From: Candidatus Daviesbacteria bacterium
GTDB lineage: Bacteria; Patescibacteriota; Microgenomatia; Daviesbacterales; UBA10151
Reading direction: 5' to 3'
Assembly: GCA_030646805.1 (NCBI GenBank)
Contig: JAUSKZ010000001.1
Coordinates: 1-36,764 of the forward strand
DNA length: 36,764 nt
Notes under the pieces: model-generated
Seen by the model: the letters and a program-made list of their open reading frames with translations, nothing else
Database searches by the model: none
What the model was told of the DNA's origin: nothing
Shown here: piece after piece, positions 11,284 to 16,638 of the stretch
Numbering within the stretch: the first letter of the stretch is position 1
Layout of the letters: each line of letters begins with the position of its first letter
Position numbers and translations under genes: made by a program

Positions 11284-12215
11284 TTCCACGAGAAGTTTTG
11301 CTCTACCCATTTCAGTAACTTTTCTGTTTCTTTAAACCTATTATCACTACCCAAAACTATTGTTAAAATTTTTCTATCTTTAATCTCCACTAAACCAACT
11401 AGGTTTTCTTTAGCCTGAGGAGTGGTTCCAGTTTTAATCCCGATTACCCCGGGTAAATCCAACAGCTTATTTAAATTTGTTAAGTGGTGAGTATATGATT
11501 TATCAACCGATGAAACGGATGTCTCACGGGTTGCAAAGATCCTAACTAAATATGGATCCTCAAGAGCCAAGACCGATATTTTGGCCAAGTCTGAAGCAGA
11601 TGAGTAGTGATTGGGACTATCAAAACCAGCCGGATTATCAAACTTACTACTTAAAAGCCCCATTTGAAATACTTCTTGATTCATGGCAGCGATAAAACTA
11701 GCTCTACCTCCGGGATAGTTATCAGCGATGGTAAAAGCCGCATCATTACCGGAATTTAAGAGCAAACCGTAAAGCAGTCCCCGAAACATAATCTGCTCAC
11801 CCTTTTTGAGTCCCATGGAAGATCCTCCAGCTTCGGATAAATCATACACAGTTAATATTTGGTTAGGTTTAAAATATTTAGTGGCCACCAGGGCAGTCAT
11901 AATTTTAGTAGTTGAGGCGATCGGGACTTTTTTATCTACTTCTTTGGAAAAAAGGACGGTATCTGAATCCAAATCCCAAACGAGGGATGCAACAGCTGAG
12001 ATTTCCGGAGGTGAGAGACCTAGGCTCTTTGGCACTTGGATCAACATTTCCGAGCTAGTATCGGCTTTATCTAAAACTAGACCTTCGGCCGAAATCAAAT
12101 TACTAGGAACTTGGATTATTAACTCTCCTTGTAATTTATTTAAAGCTTGGGGCAGTCCCATGATTAACACTACTGCGGCAATCAAAGCCCCAAGAGACAA
12201 AATTACTGGTTTCAT
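11280..12215 (-). CDS. D-alanyl-D-alanine carboxypeptidase (peptidase S11)
   Basis: SxxK (ASTTK), SGN, KTG motifs; N-terminal anchor. Confidence 0.93.
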   Translation of the reverse strand: MKPVILSLGALIAAVVLIMGLPQALNKLQGELIIQVPSNLISAEGLVLDKADTSSEMLIQVPKSLGLSPPEISAVASLVWDLDSDTVLFSKEVDKKVPIASTTKIMTALVATKYFKPNQILTVYDLSEAGGSSMGLKKGEQIMFRGLLYGLLLNSGNDAAFTIADNYPGGRASFIAAMNQEVFQMGLLSSKFDNPAGFDSPNHYSSASDLAKISVLALEDPYLVRIFATRETSVSSVDKSYTHHLTNLNKLLDLPGVIGIKTGTTPQAKENLVGLVEIKDRKILTIVLGSDNRFKETEKLLKWVEQNFSWN

Positions 12216-13537
12216 TTCAAAGAGGAAAGCCTGATATCAACCCTTTCCATATCCCGGGGAAAAAGCGAAGCCTCCCGAACGTTGGACAACCCTAAAATAT
12301 GCATCACAATTCTTTCCGATCCAAATGAAAATCCACCCTCAGGGGGCATACCATATTTAAAGGCTTGCAAATAAAGCTCGCTTTTCTTAATGTCTACTCC
12401 CCGCGCGCTGGCTTTCTCAGTTAAAAGTTTGACGTCATTAATTCTTTGTCCGCCAGTCATCCACTCAGTCCCTCGGCCCAATAAATCAAAGCTTAAAGTA
12501 TAGCCTGGATCAGACTCGTCTTCGAAGGTATAAAAGGGGCGTTTGGAAACTGGATAGTGAGTGATAAAAATTAAGTCTGATTCTTTTTCTTCTAAAGCCC
12601 ATCTACAAATTTCCCGCTCGTCTTCCGGTTCTAAATCCGGCTCTTTCCTATTATCCCTGCCGGTTCTTTTAAAGATTATTTCTTGAGCTTCTCTTAACTT
12701 AATATGGGGAATTGTCTCTGGAACTTTTGGAATAGAGGTATTATATGAAGTTAATATCGGACTTGTCTCTTTCTCCACCCGCTCTAAAATATATTTTATA
12801 GAGTACTCTGCCATCTCCATCACATCTAACCAACTATCGATAAATCCAAACTCGGCGTCCAATGTTGTGGCTTCAGTTAAGTGGCGGGTTGTCACCGAGG
12901 GTTCGGCTCTTAAGGTTTTATTGACCGTAAACACTCTCTCAAAAACCCCCACCATAATCTGTTTGTAAAATTGTGGGCTTTGGGCCAAATATGCTTTATG
13001 TTCAAAGTATTTAATCTCAAAAACCTCTGAACCGCCTTCGGCTGCTTGGGGGATAATTACCGGTGATTGAAACTCAGTAAAATCTTTTTTCTTTAAAGAT
13101 TCCCGGAAAGCATCTATCACCACTTCCTGGACTTTAAAAATCTCCTTAATTTTAGGGTGCCTTAAAGTTAAGCCTCTAAAATCTAAAAGGGTGGGGAGTT
13201 GTAAATCTAACTCTTTCCCTCCCATATCAAAAGGTAACTCTTCAGCCTTTGATACAATTTCTATTTTTTCGGCTTGAAGTTCCACCTTACCGGTGGGTAA
13301 ATTTGGATTAATTAACTTCGGAGGCCTAGAGGCAACCTTGCCTTCTACACAAACTACGTCCTGTGGTCCTAAATCTTTAACCTGTTCACCACTGCAAACA
13401 ACTTGCAAAACTCCGCTTCGATCTAAAATATCCAAGAAAGCGATCTTGCCGTGATCACGTCTAGTTTGAACCCATCCACAAATCTTGACCGACTCGTTTA
13501 CTTTATCATTACAATCTAAAACCAAAGTTCTCTGCAT
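12212..13537 (-). CDS. aspS: aspartate--tRNA ligase, short archaeal-type (probably non-discriminating)
   Basis: OB-fold GWVQTRRDHG, LAQSPQFYKQ, motif 2 RAE...RHLTE, motif 3 GMPPEGGFSFGSER; no GAD insert. ATG at 13537 preferred to TTG at 13543. Confidence 0.88.
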   Translation of the reverse strand: MQRTLVLDCNDKVNESVKICGWVQTRRDHGKIAFLDILDRSGVLQVVCSGEQVKDLGPQDVVCVEGKVASRPPKLINPNLPTGKVELQAEKIEIVSKAEELPFDMGGKELDLQLPTLLDFRGLTLRHPKIKEIFKVQEVVIDAFRESLKKKDFTEFQSPVIIPQAAEGGSEVFEIKYFEHKAYLAQSPQFYKQIMVGVFERVFTVNKTLRAEPSVTTRHLTEATTLDAEFGFIDSWLDVMEMAEYSIKYILERVEKETSPILTSYNTSIPKVPETIPHIKLREAQEIIFKRTGRDNRKEPDLEPEDEREICRWALEEKESDLIFITHYPVSKRPFYTFEDESDPGYTLSFDLLGRGTEWMTGGQRINDVKLLTEKASARGVDIKKSELYLQAFKYGMPPEGGFSFGSERIVMHILGLSNVREASLFPRDMERVDIRLSSLK

Positions 13538-13575
13538 GCCCAAATCATAACAACTAACTTTAGCCTTGACAATAC

Positions 13576-13797
13576 TTATTCACCTTTTCGCTTATTGACT
13601 AAAAGATCGCAGATTTGTCTGGGATCTTGCCTAATTAGATCCAGTAACTCTTGAAAAGATTTTAATATCTGACCTTGGTCGCTCTGGACATGACGATGCG
13701 CTTTACCCATTACGATGTTTGAAGATAATTCTTGAGTTCTTTGTTTAACAACGTCAGGGCCAAGAACTCCTTGTTCAACTCTAGTTTCAACTACCAT
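13576..13797 (-). CDS. hypothetical protein (73 aa) downstream of aromatic attenuator
   Basis: Strong SD AAAGGAGGTGA upstream of ATG at 13797; no recognised motif. Confidence 0.7.
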   Translation of the reverse strand: MVVETRVEQGVLGPDVVKQRTQELSSNIVMGKAHRHVQSDQGQILKSFQELLDLIRQDPRQICDLLVNKRKGE

Positions 13798-13834
13798 AAT
13801 TATCACCTCCTTTCTTTTTATTTAAAAAATCCAC

Positions 13835-13858
13835 AAAAAAACCTCCCGTTAGGGAGGC
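13835..13858 (-). terminator. intrinsic terminator of aromatic-amino-acid attenuator
   Basis: minus strand GCCTCCC-TAAC-GGGAGGT followed by a T run. Confidence 0.85.
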
Positions 13859-13889
13859 ATATTGGTTTTTAAATTGTGTCTATTTTTAT

Positions 13890-13964
13890 TTAGACACTAA
13901 CCAACCGCCTCCCGAGAGAGGTAAACCAAAAGAAATAACAACTTTTGGTAGATTGGCTTAACAT
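13890..13964 (-). CDS. attenuator leader peptide MLSQSTKSCYFFWFTSLGRRLVSV (24 aa)
   Basis: Five consecutive aromatic codons, followed by alternative 1:2, 2:3 and 3:4 pairings; promoter directly upstream. Confidence 0.75.
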   Translation of the reverse strand: MLSQSTKSCYFFWFTSLGRRLVSV

Positions 13965-13971
13965 TAGAGTG

Positions 13972-14001
13972 ATCTTATCAAAAAGATCTTTTTATTGTCA
14001 A
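13972..14001 (-). promoter_or_regulatory. sigma70 promoter for aromatic leader
   Basis: TTGACA (14001-13996), 18 nt, TAAGAT (13977-13972) with extended TG; ATG 7 nt downstream. Confidence 0.7.
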
Positions 14002-14246
14002 TAATAAAAAGGCAGATTTAGGTATTCCGGATCTAGAACTCTGTTGGGTCCAATCCACAAACCCTTAACTTTTTCAACCATTGAGCGCCTGTTTCCAACT
14101 ACTAACCTAACTCTTTCTCCGGCTGTATCAAAAATAACGCGCCTGGCTTCCGGATCAATCCGCAGTTCACCTAGAGCTGTAAAGACTTTAATGTTTCTAC
14201 AATCTCTAAATCTTTCAATTTTTCTTCCACTCTTTATTTCTATCAT
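13998..14246 (-). CDS. hypothetical basic protein (82 aa)
   Basis: SD AGGAGGT before ATG at 14246; own promoter; the ORF-track TTG start coincides with the -35 box. Confidence 0.65.
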   Translation of the reverse strand: MIEIKSGRKIERFRDCRNIKVFTALGELRIDPEARRVIFDTAGERVRLVVGNRRSMVEKVKGLWIGPNRVLDPEYLNLPFYY

Positions 14247-14268
14247 CTTAGTTACCTCCTTTTTAAAG

Positions 14269-14297
14269 ATTCTACTCATCTTTAATCTCCCTGTCAA
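14269..14297 (-). promoter_or_regulatory. sigma70 promoter
   Basis: TTGACA (14297-14292), 17 nt, TAGAAT (14274-14269). Confidence 0.7.
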
Positions 14298-14340
14298 TGA
14301 AGCTCCACGGTTTTACGACCGTAGTTTCTTCTCAGCTTCA
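14297..14340 (+). repeat. degenerate left-end copy of the hairpin element found in the PIN gene
   Basis: ATGAAGCTCC-ACGGTT-TTAC-GACCGT-AGTTTCTTCT versus ATGAAGCTCCC-GCGGGC-TTAC-GCCCGG-GGTATCTTCT at 30302. Confidence 0.6.
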
Positions 14341-14363
14341 CAGCTTTAGCTGATAAATTATTC

Positions 14364-14392
14364 TTGACAAGAAAATACTACAACATTATAAT
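14364..14392 (+). promoter_or_regulatory. consensus sigma70 promoter for Leu/Val leader
   Basis: TTGACA (14364-14369), 17 nt, TATAAT (14387-14392). Confidence 0.85.
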
Positions 14393-14401
14393 TACTTCTT
14401 A

Positions 14402-14497
14402 ATGAACTTGAACTTTACAAAAAGCTTTAATGTCCTAGTTAGCCTTCTGAACGAGGTGCTTCTTAGCGCACCTATCAAAGGAGGCCTTTTTAGGTAA
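14402..14497 (+). CDS. attenuator leader peptide MNLNFTKSFNVLVSLLNEVLLSAPIKGGLFR (31 aa)
   Basis: 7 Leu and 3 Val, clustered in VLVSLLNEVLL; starts 9 nt after the -10 box; overlaps the antiterminator arm. Confidence 0.7.
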   Translation: MNLNFTKSFNVLVSLLNEVLLSAPIKGGLFR

Positions 14498-14521
14498 GAC
14501 TACCTAAAAAAGAAGTTGCAG

Positions 14522-14547
14522 GCCTCCTTAACAGGAGGCTTTTTTTT
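14522..14547 (+). terminator. intrinsic terminator of Leu/Val attenuator
   Basis: GCCTCCT-TAAC-AGGAGGC followed by T8. Confidence 0.88.
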
Positions 14548-14576
14548 GGGAAAAATGTAATAAATTTAAAACAAAT

Positions 14577-14828
14577 ATGAGCGCAGAAAAAGTTAATGAA
14601 TTAAATTTAGAGTCTCAGGTGGTTGATAAAAATACTCAACTGAAATTTTGCCATCAGGCTGGCAGTGAATATGAAAGACTATTAGTGGAGTGTATGGGTG
14701 ATCCGCGGTCTGTTGCCAACAGGTTTGCCTTCCGCAAGTCCGGATCCAGAGCTGAAAGAGGTTATGTTCCAACCTTTGACTCGAGAGAAGCGTTTGACTG
14801 GAATCCGAAAAGGAGAATGGATGGCTGA
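14577..14828 (+). CDS. hypothetical protein (83 aa) downstream of Leu/Val attenuator
   Basis: ATG 30 nt after the terminator; no motif recognised. Confidence 0.55.
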   Translation: MSAEKVNELNLESQVVDKNTQLKFCHQAGSEYERLLVECMGDPRSVANRFAFRKSGSRAERGYVPTFDSREAFDWNPKRRMDG

Positions 14829-15060
14829 AAAATTTCTGGAAAGAAAAATGTTCGGTAACGGCGTAGCCATACCCAAAGAACCAACTCCCCACGGAAACGA
14901 CTGGCAGTATGTCGGTTTTATTGGTGCGGGAAGACTTGAAAATAATTATATCTACACTGGCAACGATCCATTAATTTTATCTATCCCTGAACAACAGTTT
15001 GGGATTCCAAAGAAGGACGAAAAATTAATTGATGTTAATATCCAAAACTTTAAGTTGTAA
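14821..15060 (+). CDS. hypothetical protein (79 aa)
   Basis: ATG at 14821 preceded by AAGGAG and overlapping the upstream stop; 3' end overlaps the recJ end. Confidence 0.5.
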   Translation: MAEKFLERKMFGNGVAIPKEPTPHGNDWQYVGFIGAGRLENNYIYTGNDPLILSIPEQQFGIPKKDEKLIDVNIQNFKL

Positions 15061-16638
15061 GTTTTCTGAGCCGTTAAATTTATTTATCTCCAAAAAGTAG
15101 GCAATATCTACTACCCCCCGTTCTAAAACTTGTGACTCTAAACTACCTTTGGAGAAAGCGATGGCATCAACTCCTTCAGCTTTGAACTTAAGGTGTTGTC
15201 CATTACTTAAAGTTCGGCAATCACTTATTTTGACTTTTTTTGACCCGAAAATAGGGATGGGGTTTCCTTGACCGAAAGGCTCCAATTTCTCAAGAGTTTT
15301 TACCCAATTTTTATCAACTTTGGATAAATCTAATATCGCCTCAACTTTAAGTCCATTTTCTTTTTCTTCTATTAAAATACCTCCCATCACCTCATCCAAC
15401 TTCTTTTTAAACTCCTCTAATTTCTTTGTCTCTAGAGAAAACCCAGCTGCCTGAGGGTGACCACCTATATCTACCAAAAGATCCGCACAAATTCGCAAAG
15501 TTTCGACAATATTTAATCCATTAACTGACCTGGCTGAACCCTTACTTATAGTTTCACCTTCAGAGATAATAATCGTTGAAACTTTATACTCTTCAGCGAT
15601 CCTACCGGCGACTAATCCAATCACTCCCGGAATCCAATTAGGTGAATGAAGGAGTAAAATCTTCTTGCCAGTTAAATCCCCGCTTTGTAAGACTTGTCCC
15701 TTAGCTTCAGTGATCGCCTCAAGGGTATATTTTTTCTTCAAATCGTTGCTCTCACACAAGTGTCTTGCTAGGCTGATTGCTTTGACCGGATCTTTAGTAC
15801 AAAGCAGTCTTAAGGCCTCGATAGAATCCTCGAGTCTACCGACGGCGTTAATCCGAGGACCTAAAATCCGCCCGACATCTGAAGAGCTAATCTCACCTAA
15901 ATCCAAGGCGCACTCTCTCATTAAAGCTAAAAATCCCAACTTCTCTGTCCGGTTTAAAACCTTAAGCCCCGCTTGTACTAGAGGTCTATTGAGATTGGTT
16001 AAAGAAATTAAATCACAAATTGTTCCTACCGCTACCAAATCCAAAAACTCTTCAGAGTCTTTTTCTCCTAGCAACTCCCGGCTTAAACACCAAGCAACAG
16101 CTGAACCTGACATTTGAGTGGAATGAATTATTGATAACGCTTCAGGTAAAGCCTCCCTCGGCAGATGGTGGTCGGTAATAATTAAATCTATTCCTATTTT
16201 TTTGGCATATTTGGCCTGGTCCAAAGCCACGATTCCGTTATCAACGGTAATTACCAATTTAGCCCCCTTTTCCAAAGCCTTATCTAACCCAAATTCTGAT
16301 AACCCGTATCCTTCTTTTTCCCGGTGGGGGAGATACGGCAAAACCTTAGCCTTGAGTTTAGCCAAAGCTAAATACAGTATGGCGGTTCCACAAACTCCAT
16401 CGGCGTCATAATCACCATAGATAATAATTTGCTCATCCTCGCTTATAGCCTGTTTAATTCTTTCAACCGCCACTTTTATCCCGGCGAGTAATAAATCTTT
16501 TGAATAATTTTCAAGCTTTGGATTTAAAAATTCCTCCCGGTCTTCTTCTTTTATTTCTCGGTTGATAAGCAGCTGGTTTAATAAATCATCAGGGGAAAGA
16601 ATCGCGTTTTTAAAAGAAGGGGAGATTTGCCATTTCAT
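15025..16638 (-). CDS. recJ: single-stranded-DNA-specific exonuclease RecJ
   Basis: GDYDADG, EGYGL, TVDNG, TDHH, PRINAVGR, GGHPQAAG, LEPFGQGNP. Confidence 0.96.
   Translation of the reverse strand: MKWQISPSFKNAILSPDDLLNQLLINREIKEEDREEFLNPKLENYSKDLLLAGIKVAVERIKQAISEDEQIIIYGDYDADGVCGTAILYLALAKLKAKVLPYLPHREKEGYGLSEFGLDKALEKGAKLVITVDNGIVALDQAKYAKKIGIDLIITDHHLPREALPEALSIIHSTQMSGSAVAWCLSRELLGEKDSEEFLDLVAVGTICDLISLTNLNRPLVQAGLKVLNRTEKLGFLALMRECALDLGEISSSDVGRILGPRINAVGRLEDSIEALRLLCTKDPVKAISLARHLCESNDLKKKYTLEAITEAKGQVLQSGDLTGKKILLLHSPNWIPGVIGLVAGRIAEEYKVSTIIISEGETISKGSARSVNGLNIVETLRICADLLVDIGGHPQAAGFSLETKKLEEFKKKLDEVMGGILIEEKENGLKVEAILDLSKVDKNWVKTLEKLEPFGQGNPIPIFGSKKVKISDCRTLSNGQHLKFKAEGVDAIAFSKGSLESQVLERGVVDIAYFLEINKFNGSENLQLKVLDININ

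Follow-up and report, generated by a model that had tools for sequence, protein, structure and literature searches.

Two divergent leader units in the window

The window, i.e. the whole stretch of 36,764 nucleotides that was analysed, comes from the genome of a tiny groundwater bacterium (Candidatus Daviesbacteria; 0.69 Mb, 685 kb; 90% complete). Between positions 13576 and 15060, it contains two units facing away from each other, the only two putative attenuators of this genome. Their anatomy is established, and each comprises a promoter, a short upstream ORF (uORF), alternative hairpins, an intrinsic terminator and one or two small ORFs.

The left unit lies on the minus strand. The -35 box of its sigma70-type promoter (TTGACA, 14001-13996; 18 nt spacer; TAAGAT, 13977-13972) overlaps the stop codon of an 82-aa gene, and 7 nt separate the end of the -10 box from the uORF ATG, which makes the transcript leaderless or nearly so. 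The leader ORF (13964-13890; 24 codons and a stop, MLSQSTKSCYFFWFTSLGRRLVSV) includes the putative sensing tract Tyr-Phe-Phe-Trp-Phe (13937-13923). Two 5' arms of alternative pairings follow, segment 1 (CCTCTC, 13921-13916) and segment 2 (GGGAGG, 13913-13908, extended by CGGTTGGTT to 13899), then a hairpin H (GTGTCTA..TAGACAC, 13875-13896 on the minus strand) that contains the uORF stop TAA (13892-13890). Segment 3 (AACCAATATGCCTCCC, 13867-13852) can pair either with segment 2, as an antiterminator, or, across a TAAC loop, with segment 4 (GGGAGG, 13847-13842). The latter pairing gives a terminator hairpin with a 7-pair stem (GCCTCCC-TAAC-GGGAGG, 13858-13842) followed by T7 (13841-13835). A GTG follows this T-run at a distance from segment 4 appropriate for a Shine-Dalgarno (SD) site, while ORF A (73 aa, 13797-13576) has a separate SD (GGAGG, 13810-13806) and starts 37 nt past the T-run. 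A weak promoter match (9 of 12) overlaps the gap between terminator and gene. ORF A contains one Phe, no Tyr and no Trp, and is predicted to form three helices. No relatives of ORF A were found in 95 genomes of the family or in two very large protein sets, and it may not be a stable gene. As no terminator-like site is listed between ORF A and the downstream class II aminoacyl-tRNA synthetase gene, the left switch may also feed that operon.

The 82-aa gene, ORF B (14246-13998, minus strand), occupies the space between the two units and has both an SD and a promoter-like site (14297-14269) of its own. Neither relatives nor a family could be identified for it. No terminator-like site is listed between it and the left leader, and its transcripts could possibly read into this leader, where the uORF would be internal and without an SD. 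A repeated structured element (ATGAAGCTCCACGG..CCGTAGTTTCTTCTCAGCT.., 14297-14360, plus strand) separates the ORF B promoter from the right promoter and has at least 5 further copies in the genome.

The right unit lies on the plus strand. Its sigma70-type promoter (TTGACA-17-TATAAT, 14364-14392) matches the consensus at 12 of 12 positions, with the -10 box ending 9 nt before the uORF ATG. The leader ORF (14402-14497; 31 codons and a stop, MNLNFTKSFNVLVSLLNEVLLSAPIKGGLFR) carries a Leu/Val tract (VLVSLLNEVLL, 14432-14464) and encodes a C-terminal GGLFR-stop that is common to relatives. Segment 1 (GCCTTCT, 14442-14448) is followed by a hairpin P inside the uORF (GGTGC..GCACC, 14455-14472), by segment 2 (AGGAGGCC, 14479-14486) and by a hairpin H (CTTTTTAGGT..ACCTAAAAA, 14487-14511) containing the uORF stop TAA (14495-14497). 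Segment 3 (GGCCTCC, 14521-14527) has segment 2 as its alternative partner and forms the terminator, across a TAAC loop, with segment 4 (AGGAGGC, 14533-14539); the hairpin (14520-14541) has a 9-pair stem and T8 (14540-14547). A mini-ORF, TTG GGA AAA ATG TAA (14546-14560), starts 7 nt after the segment-4 GGAGG, at the position where the main gene of relatives often starts. No separate promoter is listed between the right terminator and the gene. ORF C (83 aa, 14577-14828) starts 30 nt past the T-run without an SD, and ORF D (79 aa, 14821-15060), preceded by an AAGGAG site, overlaps its end. ORF C is a member of a conserved family comprising 25 small hypothetical proteins. Their core motif is FCQEPS..YL..LEECGGDPRSVAG, the DPRSV core does not vary, and for ORF C a two-helix core is predicted. 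For ORF D, a single relative was found (65% identity). The contig bearing this relative is 17,796 nt long, as is the contig of a close relative of ORF C.

In both units, the intrinsic terminator (GC-rich stem and U-run) stands between the leader and the putatively regulated gene, the terminator and antiterminator folds share one segment and are mutually exclusive, and a ribosome terminating at the leader stop codon would, given the position of this codon, mask segment 2. The leader folds are far from chance expectation (z = -4.9 and -4.8; 0 of 200 shuffles as good). The pattern CCTCC-loop-GGAGG-T5 has 4 overlapping matches in the window, corresponding to the two sites, vs. none in 100 shuffles of the window, and a 17-mer core has no occurrence in the 685-kb genome outside these two places. 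With a covariance model derived from relatives, the right unit scored 122.6 bits and the left one 35.2 bits; its scan of the whole genome gave no other match below E~1.

We also compared the units with known RNA families. No Rfam family reached its gathering threshold in the window. Membership of the Phe_leader family (RF01859) was rejected, both scores (29.9 bits, right; 27.9 bits, left) being below the threshold of 55 bits; the function is similar, and the units are not members. T-box leaders and amino-acid riboswitches were likewise rejected, with none at E up to 10 in positions 13500-15100 and none at gathering level in the window.

A first-pass annotation, made from the sequence alone, had listed the promoters, uORFs, hairpins, terminators and small ORFs of this divergent arrangement, with an 82-aa gene in between; all of them are indeed in the sequence. 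It had also pointed to T-K-S at positions 6-8 of both peptides. This holds for the window but is not a feature of the family, since TKS is present in only 4 of 69 related leader peptides. As to its description of the pair as homologous, BLASTN found no significant similarity between the left and right leaders, and homology therefore rests on the shared architecture and the covariance-model hit.

Conservation of the leader scaffold in related genomes

The pattern CCTCC-N3-8-GGAGG-N0-3-T5 was found in 91 of the 96 genomes of the family to which the window belongs, while the reversed control pattern gave 0-2 matches per genome. A stricter three-segment pattern was detected in 46 of 151 genomes of the class (a tally including one genome flagged unpublished, G160, with 1 match), with no control match across all 151. 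Outside the class, only 6 of 115 genomes in a sample of the phylum displayed it. Many family genomes carry several units, and those of some relatives are often grouped in tandem islands. The loci sampled below were chosen from pattern hits and are not a random draw.

Among 81 distinct hairpins in the fetched loci, 68 are preceded by an ATG ORF of at least 15 codons with its stop 40-70 nt before the end of the T-run, vs. 18.0 +/- 3.8 in shuffles (maximum 27 in 200). The leader ORF is thus conserved well above chance, its translation itself being inferred. The geometry is also conserved: in 57 of 69 elements, 10-15 nt separate the start of segment 2 from the stop codon (15 nt in the right unit of the window, 20 nt in the left one), and in 55 of 69, segment 3 begins 27-33 nt past the end of the leader stop. 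A promoter matching at least 9 of 12 positions was found at 49 of 69 uORFs, with a gap of 6-11 nt between the -10 box and the ATG in 37 of these 49; with random ATGs, 140 of 3000 pass this promoter-spacing test.

The left leader aligns end to end with a leader from another genus, in which the aromatic codons are kept (..NFFYFWFT..) and one hairpin is swapped for a different, still-pairing sequence. For the right type, 24 leaders from other genera fit one structure, with 94.8% of cells paired vs. 44-64% in slid controls; this alignment was fitted to the structure under test. Compensatory (double) changes affect 15 of 28 pairs, a number reached by none of 500 shuffles, and covariation supports helices 1:2, P, H and 3:4 in this set. 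We consider the covariation of three of the helices as established. Helix 2:3 is 93.9% paired. As the core of this antiterminator helix is almost invariant, it shows no significant covariation of its own: 2 pairs carry double changes, and 48 of 500 shuffles do as well. The bases flanking this core do covary (1.86 extra pairs vs. 1.47 +/- 0.12 with permuted partners; 1 of 2000 permutations reaches this value). The first-pass annotation would have been refuted if uORFs and pairings were not conserved in relatives; both are, and it passes on this point.

Codon tracts and downstream genes

We then considered the genes located behind the leaders of relatives. The sensing tract matches the enzyme encoded downstream in all 13 biosynthetic cases, seven of them identified by Pfam and six by BLASTP clustering with those seven. 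Runs of Ile precede genes encoding an HMGL-like synthase (citramalate/isopropylmalate synthase; 3 cases), an acetolactate-synthase-type TPP enzyme (2) or RidA (2); runs of Phe/Tyr/Trp precede prephenate dehydratase (2) or DAHP synthase (3); and a Thr run precedes an amino-acid kinase (1). In addition, a Met run was found before a SAM hydroxide adenosyltransferase and a Cys run before a PIG-L deacetylase, the Cys-run leaders of the family reading CCCC and CCC. Hybrids join one 3' switch module to Leu-rich, Ile-run or Phe-run tracts. The scaffold is therefore modular, in agreement with the earlier proposal of swappable sensing codons.

Small unknown proteins are encoded behind 37 of the 69 sampled leaders, in relatives that still possess the enzymes; such targets are therefore normal for the scaffold. 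The small proteins behind Leu-type leaders are depleted in Leu (median 6.0%, n=20, vs. 9.2%, n=19; p = 1.7e-4) and those behind aromatic leaders in Phe+Tyr+Trp (4.5%, n=7, vs. 7.8%, n=32; p = 3e-4). The same test on these proteins was not significant for Ile (p = 0.22). The proteins compared are partly related to one another. Genes of the ORF C family were found behind Leu-rich canonical leaders in the window, in two family genomes and at one metagenome locus, i.e. the leader type stays with its gene. The match between tract and gene function is thus shown in relatives; for the window, which amino acids count and whether the small ORFs are the functional output remain inferences.

One could object that the short ORFs are functional small hydrophobic peptides (membrane or type I toxin-like), the hairpins being mere terminators and the downstream genes independent. 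The right-type peptides do resemble a charged N-terminus followed by a hydrophobic helix, and an N-terminal MSKV.S.DL+..E.LL is alike among genera where no RNA helix is predicted. However, the uORF-internal hairpin keeps pairing as residues change (compensatory changes at 5 of 6 pairs), and the stop codon keeps a fixed position with respect to segment 2. Moreover, peptides of the other types (aromatic, Ile, Thr, Met, Cys) do not resemble membrane peptides; the codon run is their main difference, and it tracks the downstream enzyme. The lack of any listed promoter between the right terminator and its gene, with only the weak 9-of-12 match on the left, also argues against independent genes. We regard this explanation as very unlikely.

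Equally improbable, in our opinion, is that the right-type 3' module binds a protein or a small ligand, in the manner of TRAP or of a riboswitch, and that the uORF is incidental. The module (GGGAGGTCTTTTTAGGTAA..ACCTAAAA..GAAAGGAA..GACCTCCC) is conserved beyond the needs of pairing, including an unpaired purine tract, which would suit such binding. Against it, no Rfam family was matched at threshold, the frame and stop position of the uORF are conserved, and one module is combined with different codon tracts matching different enzymes, which fits codon sensing and not a single ligand.

Another possibility is that the two units are vestigial, i.e. relics of an ancestor with aromatic and branched-chain genes, in which young or meaningless small ORFs follow switches that regulate nothing useful. 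Indeed, DAHP synthase, prephenate dehydratase, HMGL-like and TPP-enzyme families, which are found behind leaders of relatives, were not detected in the 90%-complete genome of the window, while control genomes were positive. The genome has two units only, vs. several in many family genomes; ORF A is an orphan; and ORF C lacks the start directly after the T-run seen in relatives, a 4-codon mini-ORF being found there instead. Nevertheless, the promoters, uORFs and all four segments are intact in both units. The 25 proteins of the ORF C family keep an invariant DPRSV core, and the Leu-rich leader is kept in other genera; ORF D is conserved in a close relative. Enzyme-bearing relatives also have small unknown proteins behind their leaders, and without selection acting on the translated products, depletion of the sensed residue would be difficult to account for. 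Finally, no credible tblastn match to biosynthetic genes was obtained in the region. The possibility that the ORFs are decayed biosynthetic genes, which the first-pass annotation had named as a refutation, fails on this result and on the family membership of the 83-aa ORF. Vestigial switches are thus unlikely. The suggestion of a likely auxotrophic cell, made in the first-pass annotation, fits the four missing families.

Transcriptional and translational modes

The GGAGG 3' arm of the terminator raises the question of translational attenuation of the ermC type, in which this arm would be the SD, the T-run a spacer, and the leader peptide would gate ribosome access. The segment-4 GGAGG is followed by a start codon at a distance of 5-10 nt in 64 of 69 elements (ATG in 45), and in 30 of 69 the main gene begins at this codon. 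In the window, TTG (right) and GTG (left) are also found at the right distance past the T-run. However, the main ORFs of the window start 30 and 37 nt past the T-run and ORF A has its own SD, therefore sequestration of segment 4 can affect mini-ORFs only. In addition, a GC-rich stem of 7-9 bp with U7-8 behind it is what a standard intrinsic terminator looks like. A mainly translational switch is thus unlikely for the window. The two modes are compatible, and both probably operate in the family.

Proposed mechanism

Both units are likely to be ribosome-mediated (leader-peptide) transcription attenuators. Stalling, termination and read-through in vivo are inferred, without expression, termination or ribosome data; no RNA run contains this stretch. 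Transcription would start at or within a few bases of the leader AUG, and we therefore propose that ribosomes translate the leader ORF from a leaderless mRNA. This RNA would contain four segments, 1 (CCUCC-like), 2 (GGAGG), 3 (CCUCC) and 4 (GGAGG, then U7-8), with three possible pairings: 1:2, 2:3 (antiterminator) and 3:4 (terminator). With an ample supply of the sensed aminoacyl-tRNAs, the ribosome would reach the leader stop codon, inside the small hairpin, and cover segment 2; segments 3 and 4 would then pair and RNA polymerase would terminate at the U-run. When these tRNAs are scarce, the ribosome would stall on the tract (the five aromatic codons on the left, the Leu/Val-rich stretch on the right), hiding segment 1 and freeing segment 2 for pairing with segment 3, and no terminator would form. 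Read-through would then reach ORF A in the left unit and ORFs C and D in the right one, and the output would be small proteins of unknown function. Because the matching pathways are seemingly missing from the genome, the switches would most likely report a shortage of imported amino acids. The first-pass annotation had proposed that small proteins are switched on when amino acids from the host run short: this view is supported, while switching in vivo, the roles of the proteins and the host as a source are not shown.

A bolder reading, which we consider possible but less likely than not, is that the attenuators were kept and repurposed as dedicated sensors of imported amino acids in an aromatic and branched-chain auxotroph. 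Their output would be fast-evolving small cytoplasmic proteins, many with a helix-DP(R/K/T)-helix, purged of the sensed residue so that they can still be made during its shortage. Taken as a whole, this would be a response to starvation for particular amino acids, widespread in Microgenomates. If true, this response might act on the cell's own translation or growth or on its dealings with a host.

Relation to known attenuators

The type of mechanism is already known, and the theory of classical leader-peptide attenuation has been described (PMC1183508). What is new is its occurrence in this lineage, with leader ORFs that are leaderless, a terminator arm that is at once an SD site, and small orphan targets. 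The enterobacterial pheA/pheST, leu and ilvGMEDA attenuators consist of a leader ORF with a codon run, mutually exclusive 1:2, 2:3 and 3:4 hairpins and an intrinsic terminator, and the window units have all these features. The pheA and ilv leader peptides also resemble those of the window, the Phe peptide having an aromatic run and the ilv peptide being hydrophobic and rich in Leu/Val/Ile. However, the units are not sequence relatives of these attenuators (Phe_leader: 29.9 and 27.9 vs. 55 bits). Their leader ORF is leaderless instead of SD-led, their switch core is SD/anti-SD-like (GGAGG/CCUCC), with a terminator 3' arm that is often the SD of the next gene, and their putative targets in the window are small proteins of unknown function, the genome seemingly lacking the pathway.

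In mycobacteria, leaderless polycysteine short ORFs act as cysteine-responsive attenuators (bioRxiv 10.1101/834739). As here, they are leaderless, lie at the 5' end of an operon and use a codon run to respond to one amino acid; the phylum is different, and the present scaffold has a defined four-segment terminator/antiterminator and at least six amino-acid specificities. In Actinobacteria, classical attenuators have been predicted by comparative genomics, some of them before aminoacyl-tRNA synthetase genes (PMC1262725). These also lie outside Proteobacteria and have short conserved complementary motifs common to the terminator and the antiterminator. Each operon has its own element there, with biosynthetic or aminoacyl-tRNA synthetase targets, whereas here one scaffold has been multiplied, mostly before small unknown proteins (37 of 69 sampled).

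In ermC translational attenuation, stalling on the leader peptide opens a hairpin hiding the SD of the next ORF, and the signal is an antibiotic together with a specific nascent peptide. The likeness concerns the 30 of 69 family elements whose main gene starts right after the segment-4 GGAGG. Here, in contrast, the signal would be codon supply, the hairpin is a terminator with a U-run, and the main ORFs of the window are too distant for SD sequestration. The proline-codon leaders mgtL and mgtP of Salmonella mgtA and mgtCBR are amino-acid or stress sensors for non-biosynthetic genes. They are single loci of one lineage, combined with other signals, and are not known to constitute a family of interchangeable sensors or to control orphan small proteins.

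We found no report of leader-peptide attenuation in candidate phyla radiation bacteria in the literature searched. These bacteria are regarded as minimalists in both regulation and metabolism, and next to nothing has been learnt about RNA-based regulation in them. In the reduced genome of the window, the sensors are kept although the pathways seem to be gone, and amino-acid perception by an auxotrophic symbiont therefore becomes directly testable. One compact and easily recognised scaffold serves at least six amino acids. As the codon tract reveals the amino acid sensed, dozens of "dark" small proteins receive a functional label at no cost, and so do several larger unknowns, e.g. a 323-aa protein encoded behind a Tyr-Tyr-Tyr-Tyr leader.

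Two divergent leader units and their downstream genes

Two divergent transcription units are flanked by the gene of a class II (Asp/Lys/Asn-type) aminoacyl-tRNA synthetase (12212-13543, minus strand) and by recJ (15025-16638, minus strand). The first-pass annotation had described each of them as a promoter, a leader ORF (uORF), alternative hairpins, a terminator and small ORFs, and this description was confirmed in the sequence. In the right unit (plus strand), a perfect TTGACA-17-TATAAT promoter (14364-14392) is followed, 9 nt past the -10 box, by the ATG of a 31-codon leader ORF (14402-14497; MNLNFTKSFNVLVSLLNEVLLSAPIKGGLFR), then by a terminator hairpin of 9 pairs and T8 (14520-14547) and by two overlapping genes, ORF C (14577-14828; 83 aa) and ORF D (14821-15060; 79 aa). 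The left unit (minus strand) presents a TTGACA-18-TAAGAT promoter (14001-13972), a 24-codon leader ORF starting 7 nt past the -10 box (13964-13890; MLSQSTKSCYFFWFTSLGRRLVSV), a terminator hairpin GCCTCCC-TAAC-GGGAGG followed by T7 (13858-13835) and ORF A (13797-13576; 73 aa), which has a strong Shine-Dalgarno site (SD). ORF B (14246-13998, minus strand; 82 aa) is located between both units. The folding energies are -46.1 (left) and -54.5 kcal/mol (right), i.e. z = -4.9 and -4.8 versus shuffled sequence, and a 17-mer core common to both leaders has no further site in the 685-kb genome.

The two leaders had also been called homologous. BLASTN reported no similarity between them, and a covariance model derived from seven right-type leaders (related to that of the right unit) matches both, with 122.6 bits for the right unit and 35.2 bits for the left one. 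This model found 61 elements in 251 kb of collected sequence, and only these two units over the whole genome of the window. No Rfam family reached threshold for either leader; the enterobacterial Phe_leader model matches weakly (29.9 and 27.9 bits versus a threshold of 55), owing largely to the GCCUCC..GGAGGC-U terminator.

Distribution and geometry of the scaffold in relatives

In a DNA search of 60 relatives, the 3' half of the right leader was found at 74-81% identity in six other genera, and the entire left leader in one other genus. The same build recurs at the relatives' loci: a promoter, an ATG a few bases on, a short ORF with GGAGG near its end, then a stop-codon hairpin, CCTCC, a loop, GGAGG and T6-8. 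This hairpin pattern was detected in 91 of the 96 genomes of the window's family, where the copies are frequently arranged as tandem islands, versus 0-2 matches per genome for a reversed control pattern. A stricter pattern, requiring segments 2, 3 and 4 of the CCUCC/GGAGG switch, was present in 46 of 151 genomes sampled from the class Microgenomatia (a count that takes in G160, a genome flagged unpublished) without any control match, and outside the class in only 6 of 115 genomes of the phylum sample.

For the statistics, 20 additional regions from relatives were collected and 81 distinct hairpins were used. In 68 of them, an ORF of 15 codons or more begins with ATG and has its stop 40-70 nt ahead of the T-run end, versus 18.0 +/- 3.8 (maximum 27) when the upstream part was shuffled. 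Geometry counts were restricted to the 69 elements whose uORF has 10-50 codons: in 57, segment 2 begins 10-15 nt ahead of the stop codon, and in 55 the stop ends 27-33 nt ahead of segment 3. Of the 69 uORFs, 49 are preceded by a promoter with a score of 9 of 12 or better and, in 37 of these 49, the -10 box ends 6-11 nt ahead of the ATG, a test passed by 140 of 3000 random ATGs. The leader ORFs of this scaffold are therefore very probably leaderless or nearly so, as judged from promoter position without RNA data. The comparison with relatives strongly supports an identification of the elements as attenuators, inferred without RNA data.

Several tandem islands were observed in relatives (L052, G008:C10:25500-33000; L050, G062:C5; L053, G016:C11; L054, G001:C15; L051, G064:C6), in which each gene is equipped with a separate promoter, leader and terminator. 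In one example island, proteins of 201 aa and 81 aa follow Leu-type leaders, an HMGL-like synthase follows an Ile-type leader and a prephenate dehydratase a Phe-type one.

Conservation of the alternative pairings

For the terminator-state structure, the 24 best right-type leaders give 94.8% pairing, with both-side changes in 15 of 28 pairs, a level reached by none of 500 shuffles; slid controls gave 44-64% pairing. The alignment had been fitted to the tested structure, which favours that structure. The hairpin within the coding part of the uORF shows compensatory changes in 5 of 6 pairs. Conservation of uORFs and pairings in relatives, without which the initial interpretation would have been refuted, was checked and held (68 of 81 hairpins with a uORF; 94.8% pairing).

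The antiterminator helix, which pairs segments 2 and 3 (2:3), was left out of the covariance model. It is 93.9% paired in right-type leaders and, because it is nearly invariant, its covariation is not significant. The window's right unit has one of the two double changes in this helix (GGAGGCC:GGCCTCC replacing GGAGGTC:GACCTCC). Across all classes, the pairing of the bases flanking the GGAGG/CCTCC core of 2:3 amounts to 1.86 with their own partner versus 1.47 +/- 0.12 after permutation, a value attained by 1 of 2000 permutations. The left leader and that of the other genus share 78% column identity and the tract TTTTGGTTTAC, while hairpin H, the small hairpin holding the leader stop codon, has an unrelated yet still pairing sequence in the other genus.

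Variant switch cores were observed at the metagenome loci L088 and L090 and at L048:1914-2078. There, GGGAGG/CCTCCC becomes GGCGGG/CCCGCC-like with segments 2, 3 and 4 altered together; the entire switch has changed in a concerted, compensatory way. The leader stop of L090 lies just ahead of segment 2, not past it. In addition, most right-type leaders keep the sequence of a purine tract (GAAAGGAA) that is unpaired and separates hairpin H from segment 3, a conservation not needed for pairing (alignment A5, columns about 140-157); the window counterpart of this tract, at about 14512-14520, is GAAGT.

Proposed switching

In the right unit, the predicted segment 1 (GCCTTCT) falls inside Ser-Leu-Leu codons and lies, with the internal hairpin, within the tract VLVSLLNEVLL. 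The predicted segment 2 (AGGAGGCC) corresponds to the codons Lys-Gly-Gly-Leu and begins 15 nt ahead of the stop in hairpin H. A ribosome at this stop would mask segment 2, so that segments 3 and 4 would pair and transcription would end at 14547; a ribosome stalled at the Leu/Val codons would mask segment 1 and leave segment 2 free for segment 3. The left unit would follow the same logic, with Tyr-Phe-Phe-Trp-Phe directly ahead of segment 1 and with segments 1 and 2 predicted to fold into a small hairpin whose loop has 4 nt. Stalling, termination and read-through are all likely, as inferred from anatomy and comparison. No RNA run was found among the sequencing runs matching the stretch, the sole match being a DNA run labelled groundwater metagenome, possibly the one from which the window derives.

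Of the 69 family elements, 64 have a start codon 5-10 nt past the terminator's 3' arm; in 30, this codon is the start of the main gene. From sequence, this arm probably doubles as an SD in the family. In the window, only a mini-ORF (TTG-GGA-AAA-ATG-TAA) begins after the arm on the right, and only a 15-codon GTG frame, ending over the start of ORF A, on the left. Since only mini-ORFs begin at this site, termination would be the main lever of the window units, a likely inference from anatomy and comparison made without RNA data.

Codon tracts match the downstream enzymes

In relatives, all 13 biosynthetic enzymes found behind a leader follow one enriched in an end product of their own pathway. 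Proteins behind the following tracts were identified by Pfam: ..IIIGIIIT.. precedes an HMGL-like synthase (citramalate or isopropylmalate synthase type), ..LIISIEIIA.. a TPP enzyme of acetolactate synthase type, ..IQIIGIIIT.. RidA, ..KFFYFFFAF.. a prephenate dehydratase, ..NYFRFEYFT.. and ..VWFNYFSFTF.. a DAHP synthase, ..KKTTTEK.. an amino-acid kinase, ..EKMMMLEM.. a SAM hydroxide adenosyltransferase and ..NCCCCL.. a PIG-L deacetylase. Six more enzyme cases were assigned via BLASTP clustering with the Pfam-identified ones. The right-type 3' module (..GGLFR-stop, hairpin H and GACCTCCC) occurs joined to three kinds of tract (Leu-rich, Ile codons in the internal hairpin, or a Phe run), and one Ile-codon hybrid precedes an acetolactate synthase. 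These hybrids are direct evidence that the scaffold is modular.

The Met-run leader stands before the SAM hydroxide adenosyltransferase, an enzyme type that frees methionine from SAM, and Cys-run leaders before the PIG-L deacetylase and before a methyltransferase (genes at L012:88-864, minus strand; L065:1506-2297 and L042:1569-2363, plus strand). These pairings hint at salvage rather than de novo synthesis. A 323-aa protein without a Pfam or NCBIfam family (L053:4348-5319, plus strand) follows a Tyr-Tyr-Tyr-Tyr leader (MGKLINKYYYYNNFSKGGGLA), which suggests a role in tyrosine supply. In two genera, an aromatic leader (..NNYWFFFH..) precedes a large protein (>590 aa) with no Pfam family (L063:3-1793, minus strand; L038:1542-3020, plus strand); the relatives of this protein in the window's genome (C27:24-878 and C39:6532-6996; 39% and 34% identity) are both near a contig end.

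Small orphan proteins in an apparent auxotroph

The DAHP synthase, prephenate dehydratase, HMGL-like and TPP-enzyme families were absent from a search of the window's genome (90.4% complete), while control genomes matched; tblastn with the relatives' RidA, aspartokinase-type kinase, SAM hydrolase and PIG-L gave no match in it either. The cell is probably unable to make the amino acids sensed. The first-pass interpretation, a modular attenuator scaffold with swappable sensing codons in a likely auxotrophic cell, is supported by the hybrids, the match between tract and enzyme and the missing pathways. The alternative that it had raised, namely that the downstream ORFs are decayed biosynthetic genes, was rejected: with 14 relatives' proteins searched against 13400-15200 by tblastn, the best E value was 0.037.

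The 69 sampled leaders precede 37 unknown proteins no longer than 170 aa, 20 known-domain proteins and 8 larger unknown proteins, 4 being without a nearby ORF. The small proteins are poor in the sensed residue: median Leu content is 6.0% behind Leu-type leaders (n = 20) versus 9.2% for the others (n = 19; p = 1.7e-4), and Phe+Tyr+Trp content is 4.5% behind aromatic leaders (n = 7) versus 7.8% (n = 32; p = 3e-4). Ile depletion behind Ile-type leaders was not significant, and kinship among the small proteins weakens these p-values. ORF A has one aromatic residue in 73. Such depletion is expected for proteins made during that shortage, which argues that the small proteins are translated; translation, although likely, is inferred.

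ORF C falls into a 25-member family of small hypothetical proteins whose DPRSV core is invariant. Canonical Leu-rich leaders precede its relatives in two genomes of the window's family and at one metagenome locus, and variant leaders do so at three more loci, two of them near-identical with a CCCGCC/GGCGGG core in segments 2, 3 and 4 jointly. ORF D has one relative (65% identity), on a 17,796-nt contig that it probably shares with a 61%-identical relative of ORF C, also on a contig of 17,796 nt; ORF D shows no similarity to the second ORF located behind a relative of ORF C. No credible relative of ORF A was found in the family genomes or protein sets searched, the sole phmmer match (a 419-aa tandem-repeat protein, E = 1e-6) being judged spurious.

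ORFs A, B, C and D match no family in Pfam, NCBIfam or PHROGs. Among the relatives' proteins, five small ones have no NCBIfam or PHROGs family, four of these (with others) gave only sub-threshold Pfam matches, and ten mid-size ones have no Pfam family. ESM Atlas gave no usable match for ORF B or ORF C. The AlphaFold models are weak for both ORF C (mean pLDDT 68.6, confident only in a two-helix core at about residues 25-55) and ORF A (mean pLDDT 65.8, three helices).

A single superfamily for ORFs A and C was considered and is not established. Comparing the C-family profile with ORF A, hhalign aligned the DPR motif with a probability of 1.3% (E = 0.039), and BLASTP between ORF A and an 82-aa protein behind a homologous leader of another genus gave E = 0.008 in a single comparison. 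The motif DP[RKT] occurs in 15 of 39 small proteins, several of them kin, versus 1.9 +/- 1.3 in shuffles; it may be a mere helix cap.

Relation to known systems

The mechanism proposed for the window's units is common to classical attenuators, and their elements are members of no curated RNA family. Outside Proteobacteria, attenuators have been predicted in Actinobacteria (PMC1262725), and mycobacterial polycysteine ORFs are a precedent for leaderless sensing ORFs (bioRxiv 10.1101/834739). In the literature searched (supplements excluded), no report of leader-peptide attenuation was found for CPR, Patescibacteria, Daviesbacteria or Microgenomates. What is new is the lineage, the reuse as a multi-specificity scaffold and the small orphan outputs in an apparent auxotroph.

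Sequences flanking the units

Between ORF A and the synthetase gene (13544-13576, minus strand), the sole site noted is promoter-like (TTGTCA-17-TATGAT), and the site listing contains no terminator-like site there. In the absence of such a site, transcripts reading through the left attenuator could run on into the synthetase and D-Ala-D-Ala carboxypeptidase genes.

A repeat some 50-65 nt long (ATGAAGCTCCACGG..CCGTGGTTTCTTCTCAGCT..GCTGATA), for which Rfam has no family, was also observed. At least 6 copies are present in the window's genome (14297-14360, plus strand, in the window; C23:6841-6889, C16:4681-4740, C8:8433-8473, C22:5837-5880 and C25:639-684 elsewhere); further copies occur in several genomes of the family, 6 of them in G034. 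The internal hairpin of the repeat keeps its pairing with a variable loop, and the window copy lies directly upstream of the right unit's -35 box.
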